Positions 20,944-41,159 are shown, numbered from the stretch's first letter. The stretch: DNA of 64,000 nt from Candidatus Magasanikbacteria bacterium CG10_big_fil_rev_8_21_14_0_10_47_10 (GCA_002773135.1 PFCB01000028.1:4203-68202), one strand, 5' to 3'. A program made the numbers and translations. The notes: generated by a model from the letters alone, not told the origin.

Positions 20944-20951
20944 ATGAAGAA

Positions 20952-20982: not shown

Positions 20983-21001
20983 GTACCTATACCGGCTCGT
21001 G

Positions 21002-21232: not shown

Positions 21233-21267
21233 GATCTACCTCCTACAAAACTGATAACACAAATAAA

Positions 21268-21296: not shown

Positions 21297-21324
21297 TTCT
21301 CACGTATTAGTGCTTGATTGGTGA

Positions 21325-21675: not shown

Positions 21676-21720
21676 ATATTCGATATTTTAGTAACATTAC
21701 GTATAAGTATACCATATTTG

Positions 21721-23196: not shown

Positions 23197-23225
23197 AGAT
23201 ATTAAGCATAAAATTGAGCATATTC

Positions 23226-23307
23226 CAGGTGTCATTCCCGCGAAAGCGGGAATCCAGTAAAACAATGTTCCTGCTAACTGGATCCCCGCTTTCGCGGGGA
23301 TGACACG
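23226..23307. repeat. MITE-like palindromic element: GTGTCATTCCCGCGAAAGCGGGAATCCAG - 24-nt spacer - CTGGATCCCCGCTTTCGCGGGGATGACAC (two inverted units), in the guaB-guaA divergent intergenic region
   Basis: Each unit is itself a hairpin (CCCGC-GAAA-GCGGG); units are inverted copies of each other; third and fourth copies at 25303-25420. Confidence 0.8.
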
Positions 23308-23391
23308 ATTAGTCCTTTATGCGCTCAATACACGCTACAAGTTACAGGATAATTGCATTCTATCATCCTTATTGTTATGATTCAAACCACT

Positions 23392-25269: not shown

Positions 25270-25302
25270 ATGTACGAATGGCTACTGAGTACAAAATACA
25301 CT

Positions 25303-25420
25303 TGTCATTCCCGCGAATGCGGGAATCCAGTCAGCTCAGCTATCCGCCCTGCCTGGATCCCCGATAGTCGACGCTCCGCGTCGTACTTCGAGGATGACAA
25401 TGTCATCTGACATTATCCGA
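25303..25420. repeat. Second composite copy of the GTCATTCCCGCGAA(A/T)GCGGGAATCCAG element (one intact unit + one inverted unit disrupted by a ~28-nt insert containing the TCGACGC-TCC-GCGTCGA palindrome), between convergent guaA and epimerase genes
   Basis: CTTGTCATTCCCGCGAATGCGGGAATCCAGTC at 25303-25334; CTGGATCCCC...GAGGATGACAATGTCATC at ~25352-25420. Confidence 0.7.
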
Positions 25421-25439
25421 AAATCTAAATCATCAAAGG

Positions 25440-26354
25440 TTATTCAATCCCCATTTCTTCTTTCAACGCTTTTATTCCTTCTTCCAGCTCAATACTTGGT
25501 GCCCAGCCCAACAGTTGCTTTGCTTTTGTAATATCAGCACCGGAAAAACGAGGATCACCAGGGCGTTCCGGAACATTCACATGTTCCCCACCAATCAAGT
25601 CAACAAGCTGATTCACTGTTGTTGGTCTGCTATTACCAATATTGATTACGTCTCCCTTTCCTACTGTGTCCTTTGTCATTGCAAGTATGTTTGCTCGCAC
25701 CACATCAGACACATGCGTATAGTCACGATAATACTCTCCATCCCCGCAAACTGTCATGGGCTCGCCATTCTTTTTTTGTGTTAAAAATTTTCCAATAACC
25801 AATGCATAGGCACCCTCCGGATCAAAATATGGACCATACACATTAAAATAAATCAAACTGACTGTTTCAATATCATATAACTGCGCAAACAAACGACAAT
25901 AATGTTCTCCGGTCAACTTATGAAGCGCATACGGACTAATTGGCATTTTCACCGCACCATCTTCCTTCAGCAGCTCCTTTTCCTCTGCGCCATATGTTGA
26001 TGATGACGAGCTAAAGATAACACGCTTCACACCAGCGTCGCGCGCGGCTAGCAGCACGTTGAGCGTTCCATTAACATTTACATCATTTGTTTCAAGCGGA
26101 TGTTCAACAGAAAATGTTACCCGTGGCAATGCTGCCATGTGAAACACACCATCAACATTTTCCATTGCCCGAAGCAATGCATCAAAATCACGAATATCTC
26201 CTTCAATGTACGCAACGCCTTGTTGCAGCCGCTCCTCTTTTTTGCCACCTGCGTAGTTATCAAAAACACGAACTGTGTGACCCTCCGCAATAAGCTGAAC
26301 AACTAAATTTGTTCCAATAAAGCCTGCACCGCCTGTTACCAAATAATTTGCCAT
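25440..26354 (-). CDS. NAD-dependent nucleotide-sugar epimerase/dehydratase (GalE/WbpP-like SDR)
   Basis: 304 aa; MANYLVTGGAGFIGTNLV Rossmann, YxxxK-type SDR body. Confidence 0.8.
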   Translation of the reverse strand: MANYLVTGGAGFIGTNLVVQLIAEGHTVRVFDNYAGGKKEERLQQGVAYIEGDIRDFDALLRAMENVDGVFHMAALPRVTFSVEHPLETNDVNVNGTLNVLLAARDAGVKRVIFSSSSSTYGAEEKELLKEDGAVKMPISPYALHKLTGEHYCRLFAQLYDIETVSLIYFNVYGPYFDPEGAYALVIGKFLTQKKNGEPMTVCGDGEYYRDYTHVSDVVRANILAMTKDTVGKGDVINIGNSRPTTVNQLVDLIGGEHVNVPERPGDPRFSGADITKAKQLLGWAPSIELEEGIKALKEEMGIE

Positions 26355-26441
26355 AGTATGTGTGTTACGTCACAAAATTTACGGTTCAGATAATAATACA
26401 TGGCACCAATCACCATGAACTGTTAACATAAAACTTTAAAC

Positions 26442-27749
26442 CTACAAGGACCAGTATGTCAGGCCCGCTTGTTCTATATCATCTTTATTATATATGTGCT
26501 TTACATCAAAAAGCAACCGCGGCCCGCTCTTTTGCAGCAACTGGAGTAACGCCTCCGCGTTCATCTGTGCAAATTCCGTGTGCTTTACGGCAACGATACA
26601 TCCGTCGACGGTTACATCATCCAGCGAATCAATGAGATCAATACCATATTCGTGTTTCACTTCCGCCTTGTCTGCATGAGGATCATATACCAACACAGTG
26701 CAGCCATGCTTTTCTGTCAACGCCTTATAGAGTCCTGCGACTTTTGAGTTGCGTACATCTGGAATATTTTCTTTAAATGTTACACCCAACATGACCAACG
26801 TTGGAGACTCAACACCGCGTTGCGCGCACAACGTGTGAATAGAACGAGCTACAATATTATGCATGTCATCATTAATTTTTCTGCCGGACAAAATAACGTC
26901 CGGCCTATAACCATAAAACTGTGTCGCAGCATGCGTGAGATAATACGGGTCAACACCAATGCAATGACCACCAACCAAACCGGGCTGAAAATGTAAAAAA
27001 TTCCATTTGGTGCCGGCAGCTTCTAGCACGTCATATACACTAATTCCCATTTTGTTAAAAATGACAGCCAGCTCATTTACCAGCGCAATATTGACATCTC
27101 GCTGCGTATTTTCAATAACTTTTGCCGCTTCTGCAGCACGAATTGACGCGGCGCGAAATGTTGGCGCTATGGTGCCATATACTTTCTCAATCACGTCTGC
27201 TGACTCATCATCCATTCCAGAAACAACTTTCACCACTTTATCTATGGTGTGTTCTTTGTCACCTGGATTTACACGCTCCGGTGAATAACCAACCTTGAAA
27301 TCACTTCCAGCAACAAGATTTGATTCCTTTTCAAGGATAGGAACACATACATCCTGTGTTACGCCCGGATACACTGTCGACTCATACACAACAACAGAGT
27401 CGTTTACCATGTATTTTCCAACCATTTCGGTTGCACGCTCCACAATAGATAGGTCCGGAACAGTATTCTCGTCCACTGGCGTTGGCACAGCCACAATAAT
27501 AAATTTCGACTGTGCAATAACAGCCGGATCACTATTGAACGTCATCGTGCTAGCTGCCAAATTTGCTGCATCCACCTCACCAGTTCTATCAATCCCCTTT
27601 TTCAACTCTTCAATTTTTTTTGTATCAACATCAAGCCCGGCAACATCAAAATGCTTTGCCAAAAGTACGGAAAGCGGTAGCCCAACATAGCCGAGTCCAA
27701 CTACACAAATTTTTTCCTTTTTGGATTGAAGATCTGTAAATTGAAGCAT
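26442..27749 (-). CDS. UDP-sugar 6-dehydrogenase family (UDP-ManNAc/UDP-GlcNAc dehydrogenase-like, WecC/WbpA-type)
   Basis: Start at MLQFTDLQSKKEKICVVGLGYVGLPLSVLLAK; three-domain UDPG_MGDP_dh architecture. Confidence 0.8.
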   Translation of the reverse strand: MLQFTDLQSKKEKICVVGLGYVGLPLSVLLAKHFDVAGLDVDTKKIEELKKGIDRTGEVDAANLAASTMTFNSDPAVIAQSKFIIVAVPTPVDENTVPDLSIVERATEMVGKYMVNDSVVVYESTVYPGVTQDVCVPILEKESNLVAGSDFKVGYSPERVNPGDKEHTIDKVVKVVSGMDDESADVIEKVYGTIAPTFRAASIRAAEAAKVIENTQRDVNIALVNELAVIFNKMGISVYDVLEAAGTKWNFLHFQPGLVGGHCIGVDPYYLTHAATQFYGYRPDVILSGRKINDDMHNIVARSIHTLCAQRGVESPTLVMLGVTFKENIPDVRNSKVAGLYKALTEKHGCTVLVYDPHADKAEVKHEYGIDLIDSLDDVTVDGCIVAVKHTEFAQMNAEALLQLLQKSGPRLLFDVKHIYNKDDIEQAGLTYWSL

Positions 27750-27852
27750 ATTCCATCCGAGACACCTAACACTGAAAACTCGACACAATTTTTTTACAGT
27801 ATGTGTCACGTTATTAGTGACATGTGTTATGTAAAGTCTTAAACTATGCGTA

Positions 27853-29241
27853 TTACGCGTGCCCCCTTATAAACGGGCTTCCTACCGCTATCACGTCAAA
27901 CCCGGCATTCCGTAAATCAGCATACCGATGATGGAGCATCCGTCGACCATCCATAATAAGTGGTCGCGTTTGCAGTTCACTCACAATCACGTCTGCCAAA
28001 CCGCGAAACTGCGGCCAATCTGTGGCAATAATAATGACATCCGCATCTTTGACAGCATCAAACTCATGCGATGCATAGGTTCTTTTTTCTGTTTCAGCAA
28101 ACATGCTTTTGAACATATCCGATGCAGCAGGATCATAGAGCGACACATGTGATACGTTTTTTCCCTCCAAAAAATGCATGATATCAATACTTGGCGAATT
28201 GCGCGTATCGTTGGTATCACGTTTAAATGCAAGACCAAGCAAGGCAACACGTTTACCTGCCCAATCAAATCCCGCGTCCTTCTGCGCGCGACCTAAAAAT
28301 GTTTCCAACTGCCTTTTGTTGGCAATATAGGTTTCATTCACCAATACGGCTTCTTGCCCTGCTGTTTGCAATTGATGCGACAGTGACCGCGCATCTTTTA
28401 TAAAACAACTGCCGCCAGCGTACAGGCTATCGTAAAAACCCCACTTTCCAATTCTGTCGTCATTGATCAAAATACGACGCAAATTTTCAAATGATATTGC
28501 GTCAAACGCTTCTGCTGTACGACCAATCACATCAAAGCAAATTGCCAATTTATTAAACAAATAAAAATTCGCAAGCAGCTTTCCTGCAGCGGCTTCTTTT
28601 GGATTGACTTCAATATACTCAACATCAGGTGAATCATAAAAGCGTCTATAGACATTGCGCATAACATCAAAATCTTTTTCTTGCCACGCACCAACCACAA
28701 TTCTGTCTGGCTTCAGTGATCCCTGTATTGCCTTTCCCTCCACCAAAAATTCAGGGTTCGACACAACCCCCACATTGCGCACGCCTGCTTTATCCAAAAT
28801 TTCTTGCGTGTGATCAACCGTATCAATAGGAACCGTACTCTTATTTACAATAACAATATATTTTTGCTGTGCACCACCATCTCTTTTTGCAAGCGCAGTC
28901 GCGAGTTGCTCTGCCGCGCTATTGTAATACTCCATGTTGCTCTCTCCTGTTTCACCAATCTCCGGTGTTGGCAAACACATAAAAATAGCATCTACAGATG
29001 CCAAAAAATTCACTACATTGCTGTAGTCAGTTGTGAAGGCAATCCGCTCTTTATTGCGAACAAGCAAGTCGCCCAAACCTTTTTCAAAAAGACATGACTC
29101 TATGGTATCTCTGTCGCCAGAGGCAAGCATTTGAATCTTTTTCTGATCAATATCAAAAACAAGCGTGCTATGCCCACTGTCTGCTGCCACGGCCGCGCTG
29201 CACGCGCCGACAAATCCAGCACCAATATAAAGTATGTTCAT
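27853..29241 (-). CDS. UDP-glucose/GDP-mannose 6-dehydrogenase family protein (Ugd-like)
   Basis: Start at MNILYIGAGFVGACSAAV; UDPG_MGDP_dh N, central (GGSCFIKD catalytic Cys) and C domains. Confidence 0.8.
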   Translation of the reverse strand: MNILYIGAGFVGACSAAVAADSGHSTLVFDIDQKKIQMLASGDRDTIESCLFEKGLGDLLVRNKERIAFTTDYSNVVNFLASVDAIFMCLPTPEIGETGESNMEYYNSAAEQLATALAKRDGGAQQKYIVIVNKSTVPIDTVDHTQEILDKAGVRNVGVVSNPEFLVEGKAIQGSLKPDRIVVGAWQEKDFDVMRNVYRRFYDSPDVEYIEVNPKEAAAGKLLANFYLFNKLAICFDVIGRTAEAFDAISFENLRRILINDDRIGKWGFYDSLYAGGSCFIKDARSLSHQLQTAGQEAVLVNETYIANKRQLETFLGRAQKDAGFDWAGKRVALLGLAFKRDTNDTRNSPSIDIMHFLEGKNVSHVSLYDPAASDMFKSMFAETEKRTYASHEFDAVKDADVIIIATDWPQFRGLADVIVSELQTRPLIMDGRRMLHHRYADLRNAGFDVIAVGSPFIRGHA

Positions 29242-29363
29242 ATGAAGGATATAGTACATTTTGCAGCACTCTTCGTCAAGCAATTGCGCTAATATAAGGG
29301 AAAATATTGACTTTAGCAATTATGTATGGTATACACACAGTCAAATCAACAGGGGGTGAAATC

Positions 29364-30179
29364 ATGCGCAAGATCGTGAACATCATCATTTGGATTGTTG
29401 CCATTGGCCTGCTGGTCATCTACCCGCTTGTAAGCCGCGCGGATGAGGCGGCCGAGGCAGATGCCGACGAGGTGTCCGCGTTCGACAAGGGCTCAGCCCT
29501 GTTCGAAGCACGCGACTACGAGGCAGCAAAAGCTGCGCTGCTGAAAGTGATCGCAGACTCCGAGCTCACCCTAGGCCAGCGCGAGGAAGTACTCTTCATG
29601 CTCGGAGCGTCGTGCCACGAGCTTGGCAACCTCACATGCGCTGTCTTCTACTTGGAGAACTATCTCGCGATTGCAACAATCGCGAGCCCTCACCTCATTG
29701 AGGCGCGCAACCGCGTGAAGCGCATCAAGAATCCACCTCCACCTGTTGTCGAGGCTCCAAAGGAGGAGCCACTGCCTCCACCGGCAACCATGCCATCACC
29801 GGCAGAAGAGCACAAAGATGCGGAAGCATTGGCAAAGGCAGCTGAGCCAAGCCGAGGCATCATGCCGAACTGGTACGTATGGACACTGGGTGGAGCAGCT
29901 CTTGCCTGCGGAGTTGGAACAGTGGTGTACGGAGTCGAAGCGTTGAACCGCGAAAAGCAGACCCACTCACAGGACATCCAAAGCCGCGCCGAATATAGGC
30001 AACGCGTGGATGACATGGAGTCTGCGCAGACAGCCACGAACGTCTTCCTGCTCTCATCTGCTGTGCTTGGCGCCTCGGCCGGTGTGCTCTGGTGGCTGGA
30101 TCTGCGCGAATCCACACCATCGAACGCTCTTTCTCTCACCCCCACCCCTTCCGGCGCGACGCTTTCTGTCGCTTTCTAG
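29364..30179 (+). CDS. GC-rich island gene 1: membrane protein with N-terminal signal/anchor, TPR-like helical region, Pro-rich linker (KNPPPPVVEAPKEEPLPPPATMPSP) and C-terminal TM helix
   Basis: Start at MRKIVNIIIWIVAIGLLVIYPLVSRA preceded by GGGGGTG RBS; GC content rises abruptly here. Confidence 0.55.
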   Translation: MRKIVNIIIWIVAIGLLVIYPLVSRADEAAEADADEVSAFDKGSALFEARDYEAAKAALLKVIADSELTLGQREEVLFMLGASCHELGNLTCAVFYLENYLAIATIASPHLIEARNRVKRIKNPPPPVVEAPKEEPLPPPATMPSPAEEHKDAEALAKAAEPSRGIMPNWYVWTLGGAALACGVGTVVYGVEALNREKQTHSQDIQSRAEYRQRVDDMESAQTATNVFLLSSAVLGASAGVLWWLDLRESTPSNALSLTPTPSGATLSVAF

Positions 30180-30198
30180 CCGGCATGAGGCTGTCCAA

Positions 30199-30267
30199 AA
30201 GACCGCCCCATTCCCCTGTTATTCTGATCAAATCGGAATAAAAGGAGGAGATGGGCGGTCTTTTTTT
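30199..30267 (+). terminator. Structured terminator-like element: outer stem AAGACCGCCC/GGGCGGTCTT enclosing a 44-nt loop with inner stem TTATTC/GAATAA, followed by TTTTTTT
   Basis: Seen directly; AT-rich (host-like) composition unlike flanking coding DNA. Confidence 0.5.
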
Positions 30268-30327
30268 GCTAAAATTAGGTAAAAAAAGGAAAATACAAGA
30301 ATGTTCCCTATTCTTTCAGTCTTCATA

Positions 30328-30356
30328 TTGACAAAACCGCTTAATTATGCTAAATT
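30328..30356 (+). promoter_or_regulatory. Sigma70-like promoter (TTGACA - 17 nt - TAAATT) for the repeat-protein gene
   Basis: Consensus -35 hexamer and spacing; AT-rich intergenic. Confidence 0.45.
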
Positions 30357-30425
30357 ATCCTGTCTCGGTATACTAATATCGGACGTGTTTCTTACAACTC
30401 GCAGCCCTGTGGGCAAGGACAAGTC

Positions 30426-32639
30426 ATGAACCTCCGTAGCCTCGTCGGAATCGTTTTTTTCTTCAACTTCGCGGCGTGCATCGTGGGGGCGCCCGCCGGC
30501 GGCCCGGCTGAGTGCTACTCTGTCCGCGACTGCGCGGACAGCGGGCACTTCGCCTGCGTCAACGAGGAGTGCGTCGAGGTTGAGGACCCCGACGCCGATG
30601 TCAGCGGCAACGGCGGCGCGGGCGGCAGCATCGGCAGCCCGGACTTTGGTCCGGACGCCGAGCTGCCCGACATGATGGGCCCGCCCCCGTGCGAACCCGA
30701 CGTCGAGTGCGTTGTCCCCGATGCGCTCGGCCCGTGTGCCGATGGTGTCACGGTCTGCACCGAAGGCGGCGAGGTCTGCGATCCGGTCGCAACTCCGCAA
30801 GAGGAAGTGTGCGACGGCGTGGACAACAACTGCAACGGCGAGACGGACGAAGGCGACCTCGACAGGTCGTGCTTCTCCGGCAGGCCCGAGCAGATCGACG
30901 TCGGCATCTGCCACGCAGGCACCCAAGCCTGCGTCAACGGCGCCTACGGCGACTGCGACGGCGAGACCCTGCCCGAGCTCGAGGGCGACGTGCCCGACGG
31001 CGAGGACAACAACTGCGACGGATCCGCTGACGAGGGCTTCGACTGCCTCCCTGGCATCGAAGACCGCGAATGCGGCCGCTTGCAGGTTGGCACGTGCCGA
31101 CCCGGCCTTCAGTCCTGTCAGCCCGACGGAACCTGGAGCGATTGCGAGGGACAAACCCTCCCCGCGCCCGAGTTCTGCGATGGCATGGACAACAACTGCG
31201 ACGGCATGGTCGACAACAACGCCATGGACGCCGATGGTGTCTGCGCCCTGGGCACTGGTGCATGCGTGCGCCAAGGCCTCGGAATCTGCTTCGATGGCAG
31301 AATCATCTGCAACGCGGTCCCGGGAGTTCCGGGGACCGAGCGCTGCAGCGACAACATGGACAACGACTGCGACGGCCAGATCGATGAAGGCTTCCCCGAC
31401 CTGGGAATGGCCTGCGAGGCCGGCATCGGCGAGTGCGCTCGTCAGGGCACACTCGTCTGCGCGGGCGATCGACTCGCCTGCAGCGCGGTTCCAGGACAGA
31501 CCGCCGCCGAGATCTGTGACGGACTCGACAACGACTGCGACGGTGAGACAGACGAGGACATGCTGGGCAACCCGCTGTCCCAGCTGTGCTACACCGGCCC
31601 TGTCGGGACTCAAGGCGTTGGACTGTGCCGCACCGGCGTACAGACCTGCCAGAACAGTCGCTTCGGCGACTGCCTCGGGCAGGTCCTGCCAGTGCAGGAA
31701 CAGTGTGGCGACGGAAACGATGAAGACTGCAACGGCATGATCGACGAGTCCTGCTGCGACCCCAGCCCCGAGATCTGTAACGGTCGCGACGACGACTGCG
31801 ACCGCCAGATCGACGAGGGCAACCCGGGTGGCGGCGCGGCCTGCGACACCGGACAGTTCGGACTCTGCGGACCCGGCACCATGACCTGCCAGAACGGACA
31901 GGTCGAGTGTGCCGGCGTGGATCCGGCTGCCGAGATCTGCGATGGTCTGGACAACGACTGCAACGGTGAAGTCGACGATGGCTTCAACGTAGGAGCGGCC
32001 TGCGCGGTCGGCATCGGTCTGTGCGAACGCACCGGCCGCATTGCTTGCCAGGCCGGCTTGGCCGCGTGCGACGCGGTCCCGGGACAGCCCGCCGTCGAGA
32101 TCTGCAACGGACTCGACGACGACTGCGACGGGATGGCCGACGAACACAACGTGCCGCTGGTGCAAGACGGAGACCTCTCGGTCTACACCTGCTCCCCCGA
32201 CTTCGTGGTGCAGGATCTCGGAGGCGGTCAGTTTCTGCGGATCGACCGCAACAGTCAGCCCATCCTCCAGCAAGCCGCGGCGGCCAACGCCTGCGCGGCG
32301 CGGGGCATGCGCCTCCCCACCATCGCAGAGCTGCGGTCGTGGATCGAGGGCTGCCCGACTACGGAAACGGGCGGTGCCTGCCGCATCACAGACGCGGCTG
32401 GCTGTGCCGGCCTTGCCGCTTGCGAGGACCGGGCGAACTGCCAGTGCGCCGCGGCCATGGGGCCGGCTGCCGATGGCTGCTACTGGGCAGCCGGCGTCTG
32501 GCAGGGCGAGTGCAGCCAGAACTGGAGCAGCCGCGTTGATGGCGCCTACGCCATCGCGGCAGTCTTCATCTCCGGCCGCGTCACCGGGTACCAACCACAG
32601 CCCTACGCCTACCGTTGCGTGGCCCCCGGCCTGCCCTAA
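30426..32639 (+). CDS. GC-rich island gene 2: secreted lipoprotein (lipobox FAAC) with ~9 Cys/Asp-rich CDGxDNDCDGxxDE(G) repeats (MopE-type putative metal-binding / thrombospondin-type-3-like Ca-binding motif) and a C-terminal ~170-aa lectin-fold/DUF1566-like domain (GMRLPTIAELRSW)
   Basis: 737 aa; repeats CDGVDNNCNGETDEG, DGEDNNCDGSADEGF, CDGMDNNCDGMVDNN, CSDNMDNDCDGQIDEGF, CDGLDNDCDGETDED, CGDGNDEDCNGMIDES, CNGRDDDCDRQIDEG, CDGLDNDCNGEVDDGF, CNGLDDDCDGMADEH; strongly C-ending codons. Confidence 0.7.
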   Translation: MNLRSLVGIVFFFNFAACIVGAPAGGPAECYSVRDCADSGHFACVNEECVEVEDPDADVSGNGGAGGSIGSPDFGPDAELPDMMGPPPCEPDVECVVPDALGPCADGVTVCTEGGEVCDPVATPQEEVCDGVDNNCNGETDEGDLDRSCFSGRPEQIDVGICHAGTQACVNGAYGDCDGETLPELEGDVPDGEDNNCDGSADEGFDCLPGIEDRECGRLQVGTCRPGLQSCQPDGTWSDCEGQTLPAPEFCDGMDNNCDGMVDNNAMDADGVCALGTGACVRQGLGICFDGRIICNAVPGVPGTERCSDNMDNDCDGQIDEGFPDLGMACEAGIGECARQGTLVCAGDRLACSAVPGQTAAEICDGLDNDCDGETDEDMLGNPLSQLCYTGPVGTQGVGLCRTGVQTCQNSRFGDCLGQVLPVQEQCGDGNDEDCNGMIDESCCDPSPEICNGRDDDCDRQIDEGNPGGGAACDTGQFGLCGPGTMTCQNGQVECAGVDPAAEICDGLDNDCNGEVDDGFNVGAACAVGIGLCERTGRIACQAGLAACDAVPGQPAVEICNGLDDDCDGMADEHNVPLVQDGDLSVYTCSPDFVVQDLGGGQFLRIDRNSQPILQQAAAANACAARGMRLPTIAELRSWIEGCPTTETGGACRITDAAGCAGLAACEDRANCQCAAAMGPAADGCYWAAGVWQGECSQNWSSRVDGAYAIAAVFISGRVTGYQPQPYAYRCVAPGLP

Positions 32640-32722
32640 CCCACTTCTTCCATTTTTCCCTGGAAGTCCGCCACGGCGGACTCGGGAACCTACCAAGGAG
32701 CGCCTCTCTTCATGTTGAAGAG

Positions 32723-32756
32723 GGGCACAAACAAAAACCCGCCTTATAAAAGGCGG
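32723..32756. terminator. Bidirectional rho-independent terminator AAAAACCCGCCTT-ATAA-AAGGCGGGTTTTT
   Basis: Perfect stem, A-tract and T-tract. Confidence 0.8.
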
Positions 32757-32853
32757 GTTTTTGTTTGTACATACCGTTGACAAACACGCTTTTTTTTGCT
32801 AAAGTTTGCAGGCAAATTGCTGTCCAATTCGGACGGCAGCGCATGGAGGAACT

Positions 32854-33645
32854 GTGTCCGATCATCCGATCAAGAGCGCCGCGCACGACGCGGCGGAGAA
32901 GTTCACCCGAGACGGCCGACCGGCAGATGGGGTGGTCTACCGCGCCGTCCTGCCGGACAGCCGATCGAGCAGCTACTTCACCAGCTTCGGCTTCCAAGGC
33001 GTGGGGATGACCGCCCTTGGGTACCAGGTCGTGATGACCAGCTACTTCGAACCCATGATCAGAATGGGAGCGATCACGGGCTGGCGCGACAACGCCCCGC
33101 GCTACATCTATGCCCTGAGGGGAGGTGAGGCCATCGCGTGGACCGAGCTGGGTTGTCTGGCCAAGAAGGGCCAGAGCCAGCAGGAGAAGGTCCGCCTCTT
33201 CCCCGGCATCATGCCGGGCAGCGGCGCTGCGCGCGCCCAGACCGTCATGATGGACGCAGGCGGCACGCTCTGGCTGACGCGCAACGGAGAGACCGACCGC
33301 TTCTACCGCCTGGTCAAGACCGAGAGCGGCAGCTGGCGGCACATCGAACCGGTCATCCTGCAGGGACGACACACGGGGTGCTACATCGAGGCTGCCTCCA
33401 TGAGGAGCGATCACATCGCCGTGATCCGCTCGCGCCAAGATGGCACTCCGGCCTGGATGGAATCCTACGGGTTCAACGGTCGCTTTATTCCGGGCGCAGC
33501 CGACGAAGGACCCCGCACCCCTTGGCTGTACGGGTTGACCTTCCGAGCCGGCGATCCGGAACCATGGACCGTGATCGATACCACCACGCGCAAGGCCACG
33601 GTGCCGCGCGGCATCTACCGCGGCACCAAGTTGGTGCGGCGGTAG
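32854..33645 (+). CDS. GC-rich island gene 3: hypothetical cytoplasmic protein (no signal peptide), unknown family
   Basis: GTG start 7 nt after GGAGG RBS chosen; alternative ATG at 32806. Complex (non-low-complexity) amino-acid composition, in contrast to the antisense ORF. Confidence 0.4.
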   Translation: MSDHPIKSAAHDAAEKFTRDGRPADGVVYRAVLPDSRSSSYFTSFGFQGVGMTALGYQVVMTSYFEPMIRMGAITGWRDNAPRYIYALRGGEAIAWTELGCLAKKGQSQQEKVRLFPGIMPGSGAARAQTVMMDAGGTLWLTRNGETDRFYRLVKTESGSWRHIEPVILQGRHTGCYIEAASMRSDHIAVIRSRQDGTPAWMESYGFNGRFIPGAADEGPRTPWLYGLTFRAGDPEPWTVIDTTTRKATVPRGIYRGTKLVRR

Positions 33646-33864
33646 ATGCCGCGCGGCACCGCCCTCGCCTTCCTGCCCAATGGCGACCTGCTGGTCCTGC
33701 AGTACCGCCATGGCCATGGCGCCTTTGGCCGACCCGGCCGACTGGCCATCGTCAGCGCGGGCGCCCTTCCACCGCCGGTGTGACATGTTCCACCGCCTAC
33801 CGCATGGGGACTGGCCATCCCCTTCCATTCAATGCGTAGAATACATATTGTATTCATTGAAAAC

Positions 33865-33896
33865 AAAACACCGCCCTCTCTGAGGCGGTGTTTTGT
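33865..33896. terminator. Bidirectional terminator AAACACCGCC-CTCTCTGA-GGCGGTGTTTTGTTT
   Basis: 10-bp stem with A-tract and T-tract; marks the right edge of the GC-rich island. Confidence 0.75.
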
Positions 33897-33908
33897 TTCT
33901 TAAAATAT

Positions 33909-34787
33909 TTATTGCAAGTAGTACCCCAAAAGCAGACAAATAGCACCAACACCACCAACCACCATGCCAATGACATCACGCTTGCGCACCTGCCGCGCTT
34001 CACGAAAAATGTACAACCCTACCATCACTGCGCCCAGCGTATAAAAAAACGCTTGCAATGGATAAAGGACTGTCGCTGGATACACAAGCAGCGCATAGTA
34101 CACCGATGAAAGCGACCCGACAATGCACAGTGACAACAATACTGAGTGCGCGTAAACCTTCTTTCCTCGCATCAAACTCCAATCGCGCTCTACGATACGC
34201 GGCACAAATGATCCTGCGCACCCCCCAATGTACCACGATGTGACGTAGGTAATTAATGGGATCCCCTTTACCGCAAAAAAATTAACCAAAAAATTGATCA
34301 CACCGACCACTAACACAAACCCGACCAGAGCGAATAGCCAGTCCTTTTGCTCTTGTGAGCGATCGGTCGATGATTTTTTATAAAATAATGTAATGGCCCC
34401 GAGTGTTGCCAGGACGCCGACCCAAACAAGCGCGCCAGGAGCTGTCCGAAAATCAAAAAACGCCCATTCTCCCAAAAAAAGAGCACTCAGTCCGACGGCC
34501 AAGCCATTGATGAAAGGCAAGAATAAAATTGTCTTCGACAAACTCAGATGAACACCCCGAGCAAAAAACCACGCCCCGATTGCGTTGAATGCTCCTATCA
34601 AAAAAACCGGTAAGAGAACCGGAACACTTTGGGTAAAGAAAAAAGCGATCATCGTGACGAGCAAGGCAGACCAAATATACATGGTATTCACCACCACGCT
34701 CGCCTTGTGCCGCGCAAGAAGCTTTTTATTGAAATACTGACTAACGATTGCCGCGAGAATTCCAAGGACAAAAATGACAGGCACCAT
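33909..34787 (-). CDS. Polytopic membrane protein (~9-10 TM; DMT/EamA-like or polysaccharide-associated permease), last gene of long minus-strand operon
   Basis: 292 aa, almost entirely hydrophobic helices. Confidence 0.4.
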   Translation of the reverse strand: MVPVIFVLGILAAIVSQYFNKKLLARHKASVVVNTMYIWSALLVTMIAFFFTQSVPVLLPVFLIGAFNAIGAWFFARGVHLSLSKTILFLPFINGLAVGLSALFLGEWAFFDFRTAPGALVWVGVLATLGAITLFYKKSSTDRSQEQKDWLFALVGFVLVVGVINFLVNFFAVKGIPLITYVTSWYIGGCAGSFVPRIVERDWSLMRGKKVYAHSVLLSLCIVGSLSSVYYALLVYPATVLYPLQAFFYTLGAVMVGLYIFREARQVRKRDVIGMVVGGVGAICLLLGYYLQ

Positions 34788-34790
34788 ACG

Positions 34791-35546
34791 CTAACTGTTA
34801 TCCTCTGCGAGTGATTTGATATATCCTTCATTTCTTTCATACATCCCATTCAACTCCCGCCACTGTGGGTGAGCATCCACAAGCGCGCGAATATCAGCCA
34901 TTGAGCAGGGTCCTCCTGCTTCTTTGCAGGCCGCGGCAACATGTCGCAAAAAATCCAAATCTTCCGGGGTGTCCAGCGTCCATCGATATCCCGACCAATC
35001 TGCATCATGCACAATATTGCCTATAGCAAACAGAGTGGGATTCTTCCATATATAGGGCGTGACATGCTCACGCTCAGAAGAGAGCCCTGCTTCATTCCAC
35101 GCGCGTTCCAGAGCCTGAAACGAAAATACTTCAACGTCGATTCCGTCCGGATAGGTTGCCGGCTGCGTATTTGCGACATAGTCGTAGCCCCCTTTTTGAA
35201 ATTCTTGAACAATCCGGTCAATAACAGCAGGATCCATAAAAGGGCAATCGCCGGTTATTCTGATGACACTGTCGGCGTTTACTTTTTTTGCGGCCTGATA
35301 ATATCGATCAAGGACATCATCTTCACTTCCTCTGTACACCGTGAGTCCCCGCTCCTCCGCCCACGTTGCAAGCGGATCATCTTTCGCGTCAGTGGTTGTT
35401 GCCAACACAACCTGCTGAGTTGTGAGAGATCGTTTCACCGCATCCACAACATGCGCTATTGCCGGTCTGCCAGCGATATCAAGAAGCATCTTTCCCGGCA
35501 AGCGCGAAGACCCCATTCGCGCCTGAATAATAGCGACAACCTTCAT
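34791..35546 (-). CDS. CMP-nonulosonic acid synthetase-type cytidylyltransferase (NeuA/PseF/LegF/SpsF family)
   Basis: MKVVAIIQARMGSSRLPGKML N-terminal signature of acylneuraminate cytidylyltransferases; 251 aa. Confidence 0.75.
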   Translation of the reverse strand: MKVVAIIQARMGSSRLPGKMLLDIAGRPAIAHVVDAVKRSLTTQQVVLATTTDAKDDPLATWAEERGLTVYRGSEDDVLDRYYQAAKKVNADSVIRITGDCPFMDPAVIDRIVQEFQKGGYDYVANTQPATYPDGIDVEVFSFQALERAWNEAGLSSEREHVTPYIWKNPTLFAIGNIVHDADWSGYRWTLDTPEDLDFLRHVAAACKEAGGPCSMADIRALVDAHPQWRELNGMYERNEGYIKSLAEDNS

Positions 35547-36541
35547 ACGTAAGAAATAGAAATAAATCGCCCGGTCTCGTTGGACTCCTTTGCCGCAACT
35601 ATCAACCGCACGACGGCCGCACCGGAGGCAAGCGGCGTTTTTGTTTGCGTCCGCGCGTCTACGGCCTCCAAAAAATGGCGCGCTTCTTCTACATACATAT
35701 CATTAATGTCGTAATCCTCTACAAGGGGAAACTCCTCTTCATCGTGTTCCTTGGTCTTGAGAATGATTTTCTTTTCCGGCATAGACCAAAGAATAGTCCC
35801 TTTTTCGCCGACAAACTCAAAATTTCGTTGATAAAACCGCTGCAAGTAATCAAGGTGTATTTCCCCAATAGCACCGTTTTCAAATCGTAAAATCGTAGCG
35901 GCAACGTCTTCTACATCTATGTCAAGATCACTTACTGTATCAGCAAAGCAGGCAAGCTGTTTTACCGGCCCCACAAACCATGTAAGATAATCAAACTCAT
36001 GTGAATCAAGCAAAATTCCTCCACCTAATTTCTTATTTGCACTATACCCCTGTTTATAATCTTCCCAAGGATGCCAGTCTGGCAAATATTGGCCAAACTG
36101 ACAGCGAGCTGTCAAAATTTTTCCAATCGTCCCGGCATCAATAAGTTCTTTCATTTTGATAAACAATGGATAAAACTTCCAATTGCTCCCAACCATGGTG
36201 ATCAGATTCTTTTCTTTGGCTACTGCAATGAGTTGATCCATACCTTCCAATGAATGCGATACTGGCTTTTCTATAAACAAATGACACCCCTTATCTGCAC
36301 AATACAGAGCTTGCTCCATATGATATAGAGAAGGAGAGCAAACAAAAGCAATGTCAAAGGATTCGGCTTCAAACGCTTCCTCCATTGAGGGATAGACAGG
36401 AATGCCAAATTCATCTTTCAACGGCTGAATTCTGTCGGCATTCACCTCTACAATTGCCACTCCTTTTTCGCCCAACGAAATAAGATTCCTGGCGTGACGC
36501 TTTCCAATGGATCCGCCTCCCAAAACGAGAATGTGTTTCAT
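35543..36541 (-). CDS. Gfo/Idh/MocA-family NAD(P)-dependent oxidoreductase
   Basis: MKHILVLGGGSIGKRHARNL...EKPVS motif; 332 aa; start overlaps upstream stop. Confidence 0.8.
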   Translation of the reverse strand: MKHILVLGGGSIGKRHARNLISLGEKGVAIVEVNADRIQPLKDEFGIPVYPSMEEAFEAESFDIAFVCSPSLYHMEQALYCADKGCHLFIEKPVSHSLEGMDQLIAVAKEKNLITMVGSNWKFYPLFIKMKELIDAGTIGKILTARCQFGQYLPDWHPWEDYKQGYSANKKLGGGILLDSHEFDYLTWFVGPVKQLACFADTVSDLDIDVEDVAATILRFENGAIGEIHLDYLQRFYQRNFEFVGEKGTILWSMPEKKIILKTKEHDEEEFPLVEDYDINDMYVEEARHFLEAVDARTQTKTPLASGAAVVRLIVAAKESNETGRFISISYV

Positions 36542-37179
36542 AGGTAGGGCTGTATATCACAAAAAAATTGATCCTTGTTCTCAAAAAGAATAGTGCGTAA
36601 CCCCACCTCACGCGCCACCGCGATCTTGCTTTTGGAATTATCAATAAAGAGTGCCTCTTCCGGTGTCGCTCCCATCTGTTCCAGCATCTGCTCAAAAATC
36701 TCAGGACCGTCCGTTTTCATGCGGCCAACACCGGCATCGCAGCTAAACAGTATGGATTCAAATATTTCATTCAAATCGTGTTCCTGCCGGATATGGTCTC
36801 GCATTTCAACAGTTAAATCGGACAACAACCCGACACGGTATGTCTTTTGCAATTGCTTTGCAACGGTCAGCATATCGGGCCACAATGTATAGGAAGACAA
36901 ATACGCAGCAGAAAGCGCGCCCGGATTGATATCACTGTCTTCTGACAATCCAAAATGATTCATAACCCGTTGCCAAAATTCTGTTCCCTCGTATTTGCCG
37001 CGATAATAATCATTATACAGGGGGCGAACCGCTTTTGCGATATCGTCCGGGCCAAGCCTAACTTTTTGCTGCAACGCAGCCGACGCGAACGGTTCACCCT
37101 CGCTACAACAAACACCGCCCCAATCAAAAATAATGGCATGTATTTTCTCTTTCATGTTGTCTGCCGTGTCTTGTGCCAT
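36538..37179 (-). CDS. HAD-superfamily hydrolase/phosphatase
   Basis: Start at internal Met (MAQDTADN..) because the 5' part of the ORF overlaps the upstream gene; motif I IIFDWGGV (DxDGx-like). Confidence 0.65.
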   Translation of the reverse strand: MAQDTADNMKEKIHAIIFDWGGVCCSEGEPFASAALQQKVRLGPDDIAKAVRPLYNDYYRGKYEGTEFWQRVMNHFGLSEDSDINPGALSAAYLSSYTLWPDMLTVAKQLQKTYRVGLLSDLTVEMRDHIRQEHDLNEIFESILFSCDAGVGRMKTDGPEIFEQMLEQMGATPEEALFIDNSKSKIAVAREVGLRTILFENKDQFFCDIQPYL

Positions 37180-37180
37180 A

Positions 37181-39544
37181 TTATTGCGTATTACGAACAG
37201 TCCGCGGCGCGACAATGTCACCCTCGAGTGACGCGACAATTGCGTCAATTGATTCAAAAGACGCCAACATATCACACGCTCGGTCAAATACGGTCAAAAA
37301 TTCATCCACGTGTTCACGGGTATGCAAATAACTCAGAAGCACGGAGCTTGTAAATAAGATACCGGATTTATGCAAGTGTTCATATACAAATGTTTTGTAC
37401 ACGCGCGCTTCATAGTCATCTTGCAACTGAATGGTCATGACCGGATGCGGTCCGCAACCGCTCAATATGATTGGAACCTCATACTTCCGGGCAATCGCGT
37501 TGCCCCGGTCTATCATGTATTGACCAATATCAAATAAGTGGGAATGCACATCACCAAACTCCCTCATCATGGCAATGGTTTCCAGGGCGGCGACCATCCC
37601 GGGAACATAGCCCCCAAAGGTTGTGGAGACAAATACTTCATCCATCCGGCGCATATATTCCGCTTTCCCGCAAATGGCGGACAAAGGAAATCCCCCTGAA
37701 ATAGCTTTCCCAAAACACCCTATGTCTGGCGTCACACCATAATACTCCTGCGCGCCACCCAACGCCCATCGAAACCCTGTGACCATTTCGTCAAAGATAA
37801 GCAGCGCACCGTGCGCGTGCGCTATTTCCTTTATTTTTGCAAGAAAATCATCGGTTGGATGCTCGGATGATGCAGGCTCCAGTATAACCGCGCAAATTGA
37901 GTCCGGATTCTCCCGAAATATTTTTTCCAATGACGCCGGATTGTTGTACTCAAAATCATGTGTCATTGTTTTTATACTCTCTGGCACGCCATTGCTGCGC
38001 CCGGCCTTCGTGCAAATACTCCAGTCTTGCCAGCCATGATAGCCGCACTTTGCAACGTGATCTCGGCCGGTCACATATCGTGCGAGACGGATGGCGCCGC
38101 TTGTCGCGTCATTACCATTGATTAAAAAACGGCTCATTTCCGCACAAGGTACGACCTCTCGTAAAACAGTGGCCAACTCCAATTCTTTTTCCGATGGCAA
38201 TGAAAAAATAGTGCCGCGGTCAATTTGTTCTTTCACCGCCGTATTTATTCTGTTATGCGCGTAACCAAATACCATGGGACCCAGCGCCATCAGAAAGTCG
38301 AGATACTTATTTCCGTCCGCATCCCATATATGCACGCCCTGCGCGCGTGCAATCGTAAGCGGCGTTACCCCCACCACAAACTGCGTTGGTGTTTTGCTCA
38401 ATGTCTGCGATGCCCCCGGGATATATTGTTGTATTTCTTTTAATTGTTCTCGTTTGTCCATATGAATTTGCGGCGTAAAGTAAGTGATTTCATCAAACGC
38501 CGTTAAAAATTTTGTGATATCTCCAGCCCAGGCGCTATCGGTTTTCGTATACATCTCCCGCAAGACATAAAGCGTTTTAATCAAAAAATCATCCAATATA
38601 AGCACGTGCAAAAGATCCTTCTCTTGGCGCGCCAGTGGCATTTCTGCTTCATACGCGCTCAAAAATATTTTGGTCAAAGACAGCGCTGTTGTCGCAACAT
38701 CTGCAGTGGACTGATCAACAAAAAATTGCCTGCCAAACCGATAGATCGCAAACGCGACATCACGCGCACGCTGACTCACGCGCAGTGCGTCAAAATCAAG
38801 AATCGCCGCGAGCGTATCTCCTTTCATGATCACGTTGTGAGGATGCAAATCAGAATGAATAATTTGCGTTGGTAGCGCGTCGATCTTGGCTCTGTTGGCA
38901 TCAACACGGACAACAGCGGCGCGGAGCGCCGGCATGGACGCTATGACCATTTCATCTGTCTGAGTGCGCACGTCCTTCTGCTCTATGTGCTCCGCAATTT
39001 CTACAAAATCTTTCTCTGTATAGGATGGTATGACATTAAAATATGCCTTTGTCTGTTTACTATGGCCTTCAATATCAGAAGCAAGAGTGGCCTCTAATCC
39101 CGCCAGCCCCTTGTGGACCTTTGCGACTGCCATGGCAACAGACGCCAGAGCCTCCTGCGTTGGAACAAAATGAGATCCATCAATAAAACGGAATACGGTG
39201 TACAATATGCCGTGACGCTGAACATATCCCTGCCCGTCAATGGTTTTAATGGCTTCACTTACAGGAATGCCCAGATCCATCAGCGCCTCCACAACCGACA
39301 TATATCTGCGAACTTGCGCTTCGCTATCAATCAGTTGATTTCTTCGCACCAGCAATGTTTCGTTCTCAAGTACCACCTTGTAGTTGCTCGAATTTATTTC
39401 ATTTCTACTCAATTGCGTAATATCGTGAATACCACCATTCTTTCCATACGCAGCCAAAATTTCAGCAAACATGCCCCAGTCCCCGGCATACGGCTCGTAG
39501 GTGATCAGCGGGTCAGAAAAATTGTCTTTTGGGAATACTGTCAT
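37181..39544 (-). CDS. Bifunctional fusion: N-terminal APH/choline-kinase-like small-molecule kinase + C-terminal class III (PLP) aminotransferase (GSA-aminomutase-like)
   Basis: 787 aa; kinase catalytic motif IIHSDLHPHNVIM and DFD; aminotransferase-III motifs GVHIWDADGNKYLDF, LIFDEMVTGFR, CFGKAISGG (Lys). Confidence 0.75.
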   Translation of the reverse strand: MTVFPKDNFSDPLITYEPYAGDWGMFAEILAAYGKNGGIHDITQLSRNEINSSNYKVVLENETLLVRRNQLIDSEAQVRRYMSVVEALMDLGIPVSEAIKTIDGQGYVQRHGILYTVFRFIDGSHFVPTQEALASVAMAVAKVHKGLAGLEATLASDIEGHSKQTKAYFNVIPSYTEKDFVEIAEHIEQKDVRTQTDEMVIASMPALRAAVVRVDANRAKIDALPTQIIHSDLHPHNVIMKGDTLAAILDFDALRVSQRARDVAFAIYRFGRQFFVDQSTADVATTALSLTKIFLSAYEAEMPLARQEKDLLHVLILDDFLIKTLYVLREMYTKTDSAWAGDITKFLTAFDEITYFTPQIHMDKREQLKEIQQYIPGASQTLSKTPTQFVVGVTPLTIARAQGVHIWDADGNKYLDFLMALGPMVFGYAHNRINTAVKEQIDRGTIFSLPSEKELELATVLREVVPCAEMSRFLINGNDATSGAIRLARYVTGRDHVAKCGYHGWQDWSICTKAGRSNGVPESIKTMTHDFEYNNPASLEKIFRENPDSICAVILEPASSEHPTDDFLAKIKEIAHAHGALLIFDEMVTGFRWALGGAQEYYGVTPDIGCFGKAISGGFPLSAICGKAEYMRRMDEVFVSTTFGGYVPGMVAALETIAMMREFGDVHSHLFDIGQYMIDRGNAIARKYEVPIILSGCGPHPVMTIQLQDDYEARVYKTFVYEHLHKSGILFTSSVLLSYLHTREHVDEFLTVFDRACDMLASFESIDAIVASLEGDIVAPRTVRNTQ

Positions 39545-39939
39545 ACAGCTGAATAGTCCGCCTCTGAATATGAATCCGCTTTTGCCGGATCAAATAGCGT
39601 CGCACGATATTCAATGAATATCACATCTGTCAGGGCCTCCATTTCATGGTATACATCCTTTTCAATTATCACATACGACATTGGATCAATATCCTGGCGC
39701 AGATCCTCCCCTTTTCTATTTTTTGCATACAATCGAATTTGTCCGGAAATCAAAAAAAATAGCTCCGGATCTTTTGAAGGATCAATGCCGGTATGGAAAT
39801 GATTTGCAAATGTACTGCCCTGCTTTCGCGTATACAGCGTCACTTGCTTGCCGGGAAGATTCCGGAACAACTCAAAAACATCACCACGATCATCCGATGG
39901 GCTGTTTGAGACACCCTTTGTGATGGTAATGCCTTTCAT
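39541..39939 (-). CDS. Cupin-fold protein (WxcM/FdtA-like sugar 3,4-ketoisomerase-type domain)
   Basis: Start at MKGITITKG; motif SDDRGDVFELF...HFH resembles DxRGxLxxxE...HAH of FdtA/WxcM cupins. Confidence 0.5.
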   Translation of the reverse strand: MKGITITKGVSNSPSDDRGDVFELFRNLPGKQVTLYTRKQGSTFANHFHTGIDPSKDPELFFLISGQIRLYAKNRKGEDLRQDIDPMSYVIIEKDVYHEMEALTDVIFIEYRATLFDPAKADSYSEADYSAV

Positions 39940-39940
39940 A

Positions 39941-40696
39941 TTAGGTGTTGAGCGCCTCCTTAAAAAACTGCATGTTTTTGACATCATTTGACAATCCATC
40001 CTGCTTGGGTGTTTCAAAAACGAGCTGCGCATCTGATTGAATAAATCGGTTATTCAACTCGCTGCGAACCCAGGCAGCGTCAATGCGGCTCTCCCACAAA
40101 TTTGTATGCTCATCCACGGCATGAGATATGTCGCCTCCGGAAATATGAAAATATGTTGGCTTCAACGCATCCAAGCAGTCTGCTACAAATGTTTTGTAAT
40201 CAAGCCCTTGATAGACCGCCGCTTTTGCTGCCTTTTCAAAATCAAAGCAAATTGGTTTGACTGCGGCGATCTGCTTAAGCTGTTCAAGCGTTTGTGCGTA
40301 CATTGGCTGCTCGTTGGTATCAAGACCTGCCATGTTTTCTATCAGAATGCGCGGATCATCAATCCTCTCCAGCTCATGAAAAAATGATTCAAACGTATGA
40401 TTCTGCCCGGGATGAACAATAATCTTCTGCGCGCCCAGATAATCAGCAAGCCGTCTGGTTCCCTCCCATATTTTTAATTGCTCGGGGCCAATCATGAACT
40501 CGTGAAATCCGCTTGTATGGGTATGATGAATTTCAACTGGCACCTCTTGGAGCGAGTCAAAATGTTCCATTTCATCAGCGGATCCCGGGTTGTGGTACAG
40601 TTCAATAAAATCAACAATCCCTTTCTTGTATAGCAAAACGGCCTCTGTAAAAAGGTCTTTATTATTGGTCCAAAGCTTTAATCCGTACTTAATCAT
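39941..40696 (-). CDS. Xylose-isomerase-like TIM-barrel (sugar phosphate isomerase/epimerase family) protein
   Basis: Start at MIKYGLKLWT; His/Glu-rich barrel pattern (EIHHTHTSGFHE, HPG); family assignment tentative. Confidence 0.4.
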   Translation of the reverse strand: MIKYGLKLWTNNKDLFTEAVLLYKKGIVDFIELYHNPGSADEMEHFDSLQEVPVEIHHTHTSGFHEFMIGPEQLKIWEGTRRLADYLGAQKIIVHPGQNHTFESFFHELERIDDPRILIENMAGLDTNEQPMYAQTLEQLKQIAAVKPICFDFEKAAKAAVYQGLDYKTFVADCLDALKPTYFHISGGDISHAVDEHTNLWESRIDAAWVRSELNNRFIQSDAQLVFETPKQDGLSNDVKNMQFFKEALNT

Positions 40697-41154: not shown

Positions 41155-41159
41155 ATGGG

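Follow-up and report, generated by a model that had tools for sequence, protein, structure and literature searches.

The variable regions for O-antigen and capsule synthesis, known in general terms from the rfb and cps loci of enterobacteria, consist of an atypical, strain-variable, exchanged segment flanked by conserved sugar-nucleotide genes; they carry no dedicated mobility genes, and the locus governs surface chemistry. Acquired DNA has also been described in the streamlined genomes of Patescibacteria, the Candidate Phyla Radiation (CPR), as genomic islands and single transferred genes (PMC12455944). A third system, the integron cassette array, is built of co-oriented single-gene units with palindromic hairpins between them, and its cassettes are typically promoterless. 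Here, we analyzed a stretch of 64,000 nucleotides (the window, in what follows) from a genome of Candidatus Magasanikbacteria (CPR/Patescibacteria) from Crystal Geyser groundwater, and in it a GC-rich island of three genes at positions 29364-33830, inside a surface-glycan cluster. The third gene belongs to a family that is the regular resident of this slot of the cluster. The reading that we favor, and that we hold to have a somewhat better than even chance of being right, is that the island consists of horizontally exchanged, ready-made monocistronic cassettes in a variable slot of the glycan locus, drawn from an unsampled high-GC pool.

The locus resembles the O-antigen and capsule regions in that its flanks are conserved genes of a glycan cluster and its content differs at the same position between related genomes. 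It differs from them in its CPR host, in a segment that is GC-richer and not AT-richer than the genome, in a cargo of single, oppositely oriented units with their own promoter and terminator, and in that two of the three island genes are not glycan enzymes. Unlike the islands described in Patescibacteria (PMC12455944), the one studied here measures 4.5 kb, lacks an integrase and tRNA or repeat boundaries, reappears at a single syntenic slot, and belongs to a family whose composition excess goes in one direction. An integron-like cassette array was ruled out by the lack of an integrase domain in the window, by hairpins that are ordinary terminators with a U-run, and by the presence of a promoter in every unit. 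Among the classical marks of a horizontally acquired genomic island, atypical composition and patchy presence with phylogenetic incongruence were found, whereas mobility signatures and an identifiable donor were not. The surface-polysaccharide variable region and the island derived from horizontal gene transfer (HGT) are both known kinds of element; new here are the CPR setting, the defined slot, the uncharacterized propeller family, and the upward, near-universal GC offset. In ultra-small CPR bacteria, a surface-glycan locus would thus be organized like the O-antigen and capsule variable loci, with one slot that takes ready-to-express cassettes, and since CPR bacteria live attached to other cells, this slot is a place to look for determinants of host range and phage resistance. 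The analysis also ties an uncharacterized family of five-bladed propellers to nonulosonic-acid clusters.

The cluster runs on the minus strand from about 25 kb to the end of the window and contains genes for an epimerase, two UDP-sugar dehydrogenases, a CMP-sugar synthetase (CTP_transf_3), GFO_IDH_MocA, a HAD hydrolase, an APH-aminotransferase fusion, NeuB, DegT, glycosyltransferases and an ABC exporter. The island is the sole plus-strand block within it. The features of the island and its two flanks are listed below, with coordinates counted from the first nucleotide of the window.

27853-29259, minus strand: left host flank, protein of the UDP-glucose/GDP-mannose dehydrogenase family, 468 aa, GC 0.44 (PF03721/PF00984/PF03720)
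29307-29335, plus strand: P1, promoter-like element of gene 1, TTGACT, 17 nt, TATACA, with TGn ahead of the -10 (read from the sequence)
29364-30179, plus strand: gene 1, orphan TPR-like membrane protein, 271 aa
30197-30268, plus strand: T1, terminator of gene 1, long imperfect hairpin followed by a U-run (-41.8 kcal/mol, z -6.8)
30328-30356, plus strand: P2, promoter, TTGACA, 17 nt, TAAATT, TGC extended -10, 10 of 12 consensus matches (pattern scan)
30426-32639, plus strand: gene 2, lipoprotein-like protein with MopE-type Cys-rich repeats (PF11617), 737 aa
32727-32768, no strand assigned: T2, perfect 19-bp hairpin (inverted repeat I6) with A-run and U-run (-30.1 kcal/mol, z -6.6)
32777-32805, plus strand: P3, promoter, TTGACA, 17 nt, TAAAGT, TGC extended -10
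32854-33645, plus strand: gene 3 part A, 263 aa, ending at the TAG 33643-33645, GC 0.66 and third-codon-position GC (GC3) 0.85
33599-33661, no strand assigned: palindrome of 63 nt, 31-nt arms with 1 mismatch (inverted repeat I1; -72.4 kcal/mol, z -10.5)
33646-33786, plus strand: gene 3 part B, in frame, with an ATG directly after the TAG, last propeller blade
33787-33860, plus strand: 3' tail of gene 3, 44 nt GC-rich (0.64), then 30 nt AT-rich
33861-33898, no strand assigned: T3, perfect 15-bp hairpin with A and U runs (repeats I15 and D11; z -7.0)
33909-34787, minus strand: right host flank, EamA-like multi-pass membrane protein, 292 aa

The island showed a GC content of 0.635, compared with 0.464 ± 0.023 (maximum 0.508) in host windows of 4.5 kb. 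In windows of 300 nt, GC was 0.39-0.45 up to position 29249, 0.58-0.60 from 29400 and 0.64-0.72 over 30450-33750, and it was about 0.48 past 33900. An earlier note on this DNA, made from the sequence by eye, had placed the upward jump at the start codon of gene 1, and a rise at about 29364, from 0.42-0.45 to 0.59-0.72, agrees with this. The same note had given the island a GC content of about 65%, a figure close to that of the whole island but too high for gene 1 (0.59), and had let GC return to background after 33645. This was not the case, as 33646-33786 has a GC content of 0.72 and encodes the C-terminus of gene 3, so that the true right boundary lies at about 33830, where GC drops. GC and GC3 were 0.588 and 0.654 for gene 1, 0.676 and 0.825 for gene 2, and 0.659 and 0.845 for gene 3, against a GC3 of 0.35-0.55 in the 43 other tabulated open reading frames (ORFs) of the window; the island codons therefore end mostly in C or G, unlike those of the host, as the note had described. 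Codons ending in G and codons ending in C were both elevated in the GC-rich genes. The relative synonymous codon usage (RSCU) of the island genes was unrelated to that of host genes (r ~0); within the set of island genes plus GC-rich family genes from other loci, r was 0.4-0.84. Third-position periodicity favored the plus-strand frames of genes 2 and 3, and the high-GC third position was absent from the long minus-strand ORFs of the JGI gene caller. The dinucleotide distance (delta*) between island and host was 0.132, compared with 0.043 ± 0.012 among host windows (z 7.6), and the tetranucleotide distance of the island from the host reached a z of 19.8. No other GC-rich stretch was found in the 64 kb, every other 1-kb bin having a GC content of at most 0.53, which indicates that, within the window, the host shows no comparable heterogeneity. 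Collectively, the sliding GC, GC3 and tetranucleotide analyses proposed in the note set the island apart, and the jump in composition is real.

Genes of the gene 3 family were found in nonulosonic-acid clusters in the window and in nine other loci (L088, L092, L093, L099, L104, L107, L111, L113 and L117), where they accompany genes for NeuB, CMP-sugar synthetase and aminotransferase. On the left side of the slot, the order epimerase, UDP-glucose dehydrogenase (UDPG-DH, minus strand) and family gene (plus strand) is common to the window, L088, L099 and L101. On the right side, the series CTP_transf_3, GFO_IDH, hydrolase and aminotransferase (minus strand) also occurs in L088 and L099, with an EamA-like gene ahead of it in L099. 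The flanking proteins of L088, L099 and L101 are 51-72% identical to those of the window, and UDPG-DH shows 66-77% identity over all compared pairs (66-70% between the window and these three loci). The family proteins are far more divergent: identity was 36.5% between the window and L088, 30.6% between the window and L099, 29.6% between L088 and L099, and 55.3% between L099 and L101. UDPG-DH is most alike in L088 and L099 (76.7%), but the family genes of these two loci belong to separate clades, and the family gene of L099 is 58% identical to that of L092, although the L092 locus is otherwise different. Conserved flanks combined with divergent, tree-incongruent family genes point to cassette replacement at a conserved slot. 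The further cargo of the slot consists of genes 1 and 2 in the window, a 362-aa methyltransferase-like gene in L088, and a putative AbiE-type toxin-antitoxin pair with a GC-rich DMT transporter gene in L099; L101 has nothing extra. No counterpart of genes 1 and 2 was found in the slots of L088, L099 and L101. The pair in L099 occupies 4372-5773, between UDPG-DH and the family gene, as two minus-strand ORFs of host-like GC (GC3 about 0.40) that look like AbiEii and AbiEi.

The GC peak was observed in most genomes that carry the family gene, and the one-off recent event envisaged in the earlier note is too simple for this pattern. The GC3 of the family gene was 0.74 in L088, against 0.25-0.43 in its neighbors, and 0.76-0.77 in L092 and L093, against about 0.51. 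Sharp single-gene GC peaks were detected in L099 (GC 0.64 vs a background of 0.42), L101 (0.52 vs 0.31), L107 (0.43 vs 0.32) and L117 (0.63 vs 0.50). Among the 19 loci with usable flanks, the family gene ranked first in GC3 of the locus ORFs in 14, second in 4 and last in 1, and its GC excess ranged from about 0 to +0.22 across 24 loci. In L113, a contig with a background GC of 0.60, NeuB and CTP_transf_3 enclose the family gene (region 34-2224), which overlaps CTP_transf_3 and barely departs from the background in GC. This was the only high-GC home found, and the L113 gene is in another clade than the window gene. Every GC-rich copy comes with a TTGACA-17-TAnnnT promoter of its own, a leader of about 50-110 nt and a GC-rich 3' tail, and no motif shared among these tails was found. 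The GC-rich family genes of different genomes have a common codon usage (r 0.6-0.84) and dinucleotide signature, and the island lay closer to the pooled GC-rich family genes from other genomes (delta* 0.093) than to its own host (0.132). Moreover, GC at first codon positions and the content of GARP amino acids track GC3 across the family (r 0.80 and 0.71, respectively). Selection for C-ending codons only was ruled out, because the G-ending codons of Lys, Glu and Gln and the amino-acid composition are shifted too; these changes look like those of proteins shaped in a high-GC genome, not of codon selection alone.

Next, the signals around the genes were analyzed. From its sequence, each of the three genes appears to be monocistronic, with its own promoter of the sigma-70 type carrying an extended -10, short untranslated regions (UTRs), a GC-rich ORF and an intrinsic terminator. 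P1 aligns with P2 and P3 in repeat family D9 and is the weakest of the three; it is missing from the list of the consensus scan because its -10 ends in A. The TTGACA-type promoters announced in the earlier note were thus found as P2 and P3, both with a TGn extended -10, and in a weaker TTGACT form as P1. P2 is followed by a 5' UTR of 69 nt, and P3 by one of 48 nt with a GGAGG ribosome-binding site. Similarly, the perfect rho-independent terminators of the note correspond to T2 and T3 but not to T1, whose long hairpin is imperfect. T2, flanked by an A-run and a U-run, has the form of a bidirectional terminator, and T3, with 76% identity to T2, is common to gene 3 and the convergent host gene. 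Analysis of the UTRs with Rfam gave sub-threshold, terminator-like matches only. The sequence TTTTTTTGCTAAAATT (30261-30276), directly after T1 and with no -35 upstream, nearly repeats TTTTTTTGCTAAAGTT (32791-32806), which belongs to the spacer and -10 of P3, and could be the remnant of a terminator-promoter junction that was duplicated.

The note had also described AT-rich spacers within the island. GC was 0.28-0.31 in the promoters and 0.27 in two tracts, one of 59 nt upstream of P2 and one of 30 nt upstream of T3; together with the A/T tracts of the terminators, these are the only AT-rich parts of the spacers. The UTRs showed values of 0.46-0.54 (5') and 0.59-0.71 (3'), and the supposed AT-rich spacer at 33646-33900 starts with the coding sequence mentioned above. 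These values indicate that the GC-rich domain follows the transcribed units and that the AT-rich parts consist for the most part of the signals. The architecture of the island promoters, TTGACA-N14-TGn-TAnAnT, was found in a host promoter at 58560-58531 and ahead of gene 3 homologues in other CPR contigs. In agreement, a bidirectional host terminator at 9255-9290 (AAACAAAACCCCGCC...GGCGGGGTTTTGTTTT) closely resembles T2 and T3 in its sequence form, AAACAAAAxCCGCC...GGCGGxTTTTGTTT being common to them, and for this reason we refer to the island terminators as lineage-style. Foreign-type ORFs do therefore lie beside lineage-type regulatory DNA, as claimed. Nevertheless, the paradox of foreign ORFs embedded in native regulatory DNA largely dissolves, because the AT-rich stretches are the signals and two tracts, and the other non-coding transcribed sequence is GC-rich to intermediate.

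Gene 3 starts at the GTG 32854, behind the GGAGG, and not at 32806. Its TAG sits in the second arm of the palindrome, and where homologues in the family alignment read KLV-VPGVxG-xG(I/L)AFL, the window reads KLV-RR*MPR-GTALAFL. Apparently, the 31 nt ahead of this point were copied in inverted orientation over six codons, and we infer a template-switch-type mutation. The palindrome is 100% identical in the Logan and JGI assemblies. Part B (GC 0.72) was aligned by hhalign with positions 256-295 of the 301 positions of the family profile (probability 97%, E 2.8e-11). Gene 3 is hence cut into 263 + 46 residues, the remainder being intact, and because of this split, it is probably inactive in this genome or made as two pieces.

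The family itself was revealed by an exhaustive HMMER search, whereas word-indexed protein searches returned only the self matches of genes 1 and 3. The organism names attached to it are only "Patescibacteria group bacterium" and "bacterium", and gene 3 has no match in Pfam. AlphaFold gave a predicted local distance difference test (pLDDT) value of 40 from the single sequence, and with the family alignment the modelled fold was a five-bladed beta-propeller, predicted to be cytoplasmic. Identity with the five-bladed propellers of the YjiK C-terminal domain and glutaminyl cyclase was 8-12%; gene 3 differs from these bacterial propellers in its nonulosonic-acid biosynthesis context and its lack of a Pfam match, the comparison being one of fold and sequence identity. 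No significant profile match and no close structural match was obtained with the six-bladed SGL, strictosidine-synthase and NHL propellers. The context suggests that the family probably modifies the nonulosonic sugar or its transfer, making it a candidate for a new step of the nonulosonic-acid pathway.

Genes 1 and 2 encode different kinds of protein. A protein identical to that of gene 2 is recorded at NCBI under Candidatus Magasanikbacteria, and the identity of the host is taken from it. Inspection by eye of the gene 1 product suggested an N-terminal hydrophobic signal or anchor, a TPR-like segment, a Pro-rich linker and two hydrophobic segments; the TPR matches in Pfam were sub-threshold, and no NCBIfam, PADLOC, PHROG or plasmid match was obtained. 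The translation of gene 2 begins with what looks like a lipoprotein signal peptide (...NFAAC) and matches PF11617 in six stretches (E 1.3e-35, 121.7 bits vs a cut-off of 27), and its DNA contains 8-10 repeat copies with a period of about 165-183 nt. The C-terminal domain is weakly similar to Lcl_C, which is C-type-lectin-like (E 0.028), and had no counterpart in the top 120 matches. Gene 2 thus shares repeated PF11617 modules behind a signal peptide with the MopE-related Cys-rich repeat proteins that abound in Myxococcota, and differs from them in an identity of at most 43%, in a likeness confined to the repeats, and in the Lcl_C-like domain, which is not found in the top matches. The lectin-like end was also considered as the target of a diversity-generating retroelement, and this was rejected, as no second copy of 32300-32640 was found in the window and no reverse transcriptase domain was detected. 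Taken together, genes 1 and 2 would encode additional proteins of the envelope that plausibly serve attachment, the first a TPR protein anchored in the membrane, the second a Cys-rich repeat lipoprotein whose end is lectin-like.

The earlier note had left open that the island is an assembly chimera, in which the assembler joined GC-rich DNA of another organism to a CPR contig. Independent assemblies were compared with the window. In Logan (SRR6240789), L001 covers 28582-33762 and L002 covers 33742-44787, both at 100% identity. In JGI 3300004210, L004/L006 covers 17853-33754 at 100% identity and L003 covers 33824-44787 at 99.99%, and in JGI 3300004209, L005 covers 27671-29918 at 100%. All these contigs that reach the right part of the island break within 33742-33824, about 100 nt downstream of the 63-nt palindrome, and this is what a chimera would have in its favor; the breaks could reflect strain heterogeneity or a drop in coverage. 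However, the left junction is joined in L001, L004/L006 and L005 (the JGI contig Ga0066639_10001715 spans it and reaches 33754), the GC-rich tail is attached to the right host flank in L002 and L003, L001 and L002 share an identical overlap of 21 nt, and contigs of other samples have homologous GC peaks at the same slot. With the GC-rich sequence tied to host DNA at both ends by separate assemblies and the architecture shared by relatives, we regard a chimera as extremely improbable. Many family members were found on contigs of 1.2-3 kb that end just outside the GC-rich gene (e.g., L087, L090 and L091); assemblies seem to break around these cassettes generally, which fits strain variability of the slot or GC-dependent coverage.

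Regarding the origin of the island, the exchange of cassettes would proceed by horizontal arrival from high-GC genomes, and, as no mobility genes are present, the probable route would be recombination in the conserved flanking glycan genes or in their intergenic hairpins. The graded GC excess across loci would represent different times since arrival, like an amelioration series, and in this genome the slot-resident gene 3 would later have been split by the palindrome-forming mutation. L113, with its high-GC background, provides a high-GC home only for a different clade of the family. Most transfers detected into Patescibacteria come from other Patescibacteria (PMC12455944). The horizontal origin proposed in the earlier note is thus supported for gene 3 by the incongruence between tree and synteny, and for all three genes together the evidence is their composition. 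Several observations weigh against this reading. No close homologue was found in any high-GC genome by protein, viral and plasmid searches, so the protein searches proposed in the note identified no donor lineage, and gene 1 matched only itself among 5.8 billion proteins. Integrase, transposase and reverse transcriptase domains were absent from the whole window (Pfam, ORFs of at least 150 aa), no tRNA gene lies near the island (the sole one of the window is at 1812-1886), direct repeats were not found at its boundaries, and it had no match in viral and plasmid collections; PADLOC and PHROG gave no match either. In addition, the composition excess is one-sided across the family: an excess of GC over the host is much commoner in the family gene than would follow from random exchange between genomes of 0.30-0.60 GC, and in the clade of gene 3, every member with readable flanks is a GC peak in an AT-richer context. 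The same-slot sister genes of L099 and L101, whose four-fold sites are saturated (0.33 identical vs 0.29 expected), are still far above the GC3 of their hosts, and the logit GC3 shift in the four syntenic loci was nearly the same, 1.85 ± 0.31, 1.70 ± 0.27, 2.03 ± 0.34 and 1.85 ± 0.27, at flank GC3 values of 0.44, 0.34, 0.44 and 0.21, respectively.

Part of these data would also be expected if a persistent, GC-favoring force specific to the gene or transcription unit (about 1.9 logit units) acted in place of a recent transfer, so that in each lineage the GC3 of the gene equals the host equilibrium plus a constant; candidates for such a force are selection on the transcript or the DNA itself and GC-biased gene conversion in a hotspot of recombination. 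The near-constant logit shifts were obtained despite flank GC3 values of 0.21-0.44 and two clades about 30% identical, and they, the top rank of the family gene in 14 of 19 loci, the GC-rich sister genes with saturated synonymous sites, and a GC-rich domain that includes the UTRs and not only codons all point in this direction. However, the shift is not constant in the family as a whole, where the GC3 values give about -0.3 to 2.0, and its constancy relies on four loci picked after seeing the data. Unrelated neighbors are GC-rich too (gene 2, the 362-aa gene of L088 and the DMT gene of L099), the AbiE-like pair in the same L099 slot is not, the amino-acid composition is shifted as in true high-GC genomes, and the tree incongruence shows that replacement occurs. 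Reported effects of GC-biased gene conversion in bacteria are, moreover, much smaller. Because the shift varies over the family as a whole, the neighbors share the excess, replacement occurs and the loci were chosen post hoc, we consider such a force unlikely, and give the same low credence to the idea that the GC peak is actively maintained over spans in which synonymous sites saturate, perhaps in co-oriented neighbors as well. If it did act, standard detectors would misread compositional islands of this kind as recent HGT; composition-based detection in metagenome-assembled genomes (MAGs) rests on the assumption that atypical composition means recent transfer, and the almost universal GC excess of the family, with the constant logit shift of the four syntenic genomes, offers a test of whether this always holds. 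Even less probable, in our view, is a single recent en-bloc transfer of the three genes from a Myxococcota-like high-GC donor, the lineage suggested in the note. In its favor, most gene 2 homologues that bear a name are Myxococcales, Polyangia or "Deltaproteobacteria" MAG proteins, and genes 2 and 3 agree closely in GC3 (0.83 and 0.85) and in RSCU (r 0.69). Against this, the best gene 2 homologues have 31-43% identity over 53-74% of the query, in the repeat modules and not in the C-terminal domain, and a MopE-related protein of Candidatus Uhrbacteria (CPR) is among the matches. Gene 1 has no homologue, the gene 3 family is slot-resident in three related genomes and bears the names of Patescibacteria or "bacterium" only, each gene has its own CPR-style promoter and terminator, and the clearly lower GC3 of gene 1 (0.65) suggests a different age or source. 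The exchange of separate cassettes is therefore the reading that we retain.

The genes next to the island were also analyzed. The left-flank dehydrogenase gene is divergent from gene 1, and to the right of the EamA-like gene lies the gene for the CMP-sugar synthetase on the minus strand (CTP_transf_3, Pfam). The 292-aa EamA-like protein shows 33% identity with the EamA-like neighbor of the family gene in L093 and 30% with that of L099; no relatives of it were found in GTDB genomes. Further along the cluster, at 37181-39544, APH kinase-like and class-III aminotransferase domains are encoded in one ORF of 787 aa, and in L088 the two domains are separate genes (9125-10213 and 7830-9104).

The left half of the window encodes the de novo purine pathway. 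CPR bacteria are usually described as lacking nucleotide synthesis; here, a near-complete pathway was observed at 4779-25269, with PurA, PurL, a PurM-like protein, PurB, PurF, PurH, IMPDH and GuaA. PurA has at most 49% identity to any of the matches listed from GTDB genomes. Two unusual fusions were found in this row, PurQ-PurC-PurE in one ORF of 908 aa (10973-13699) and PurD-PurN (17468-19357), and a DUF559/REase_MTES_1575 endonuclease-like gene (16858-17406) lies between purF and purD-purN.

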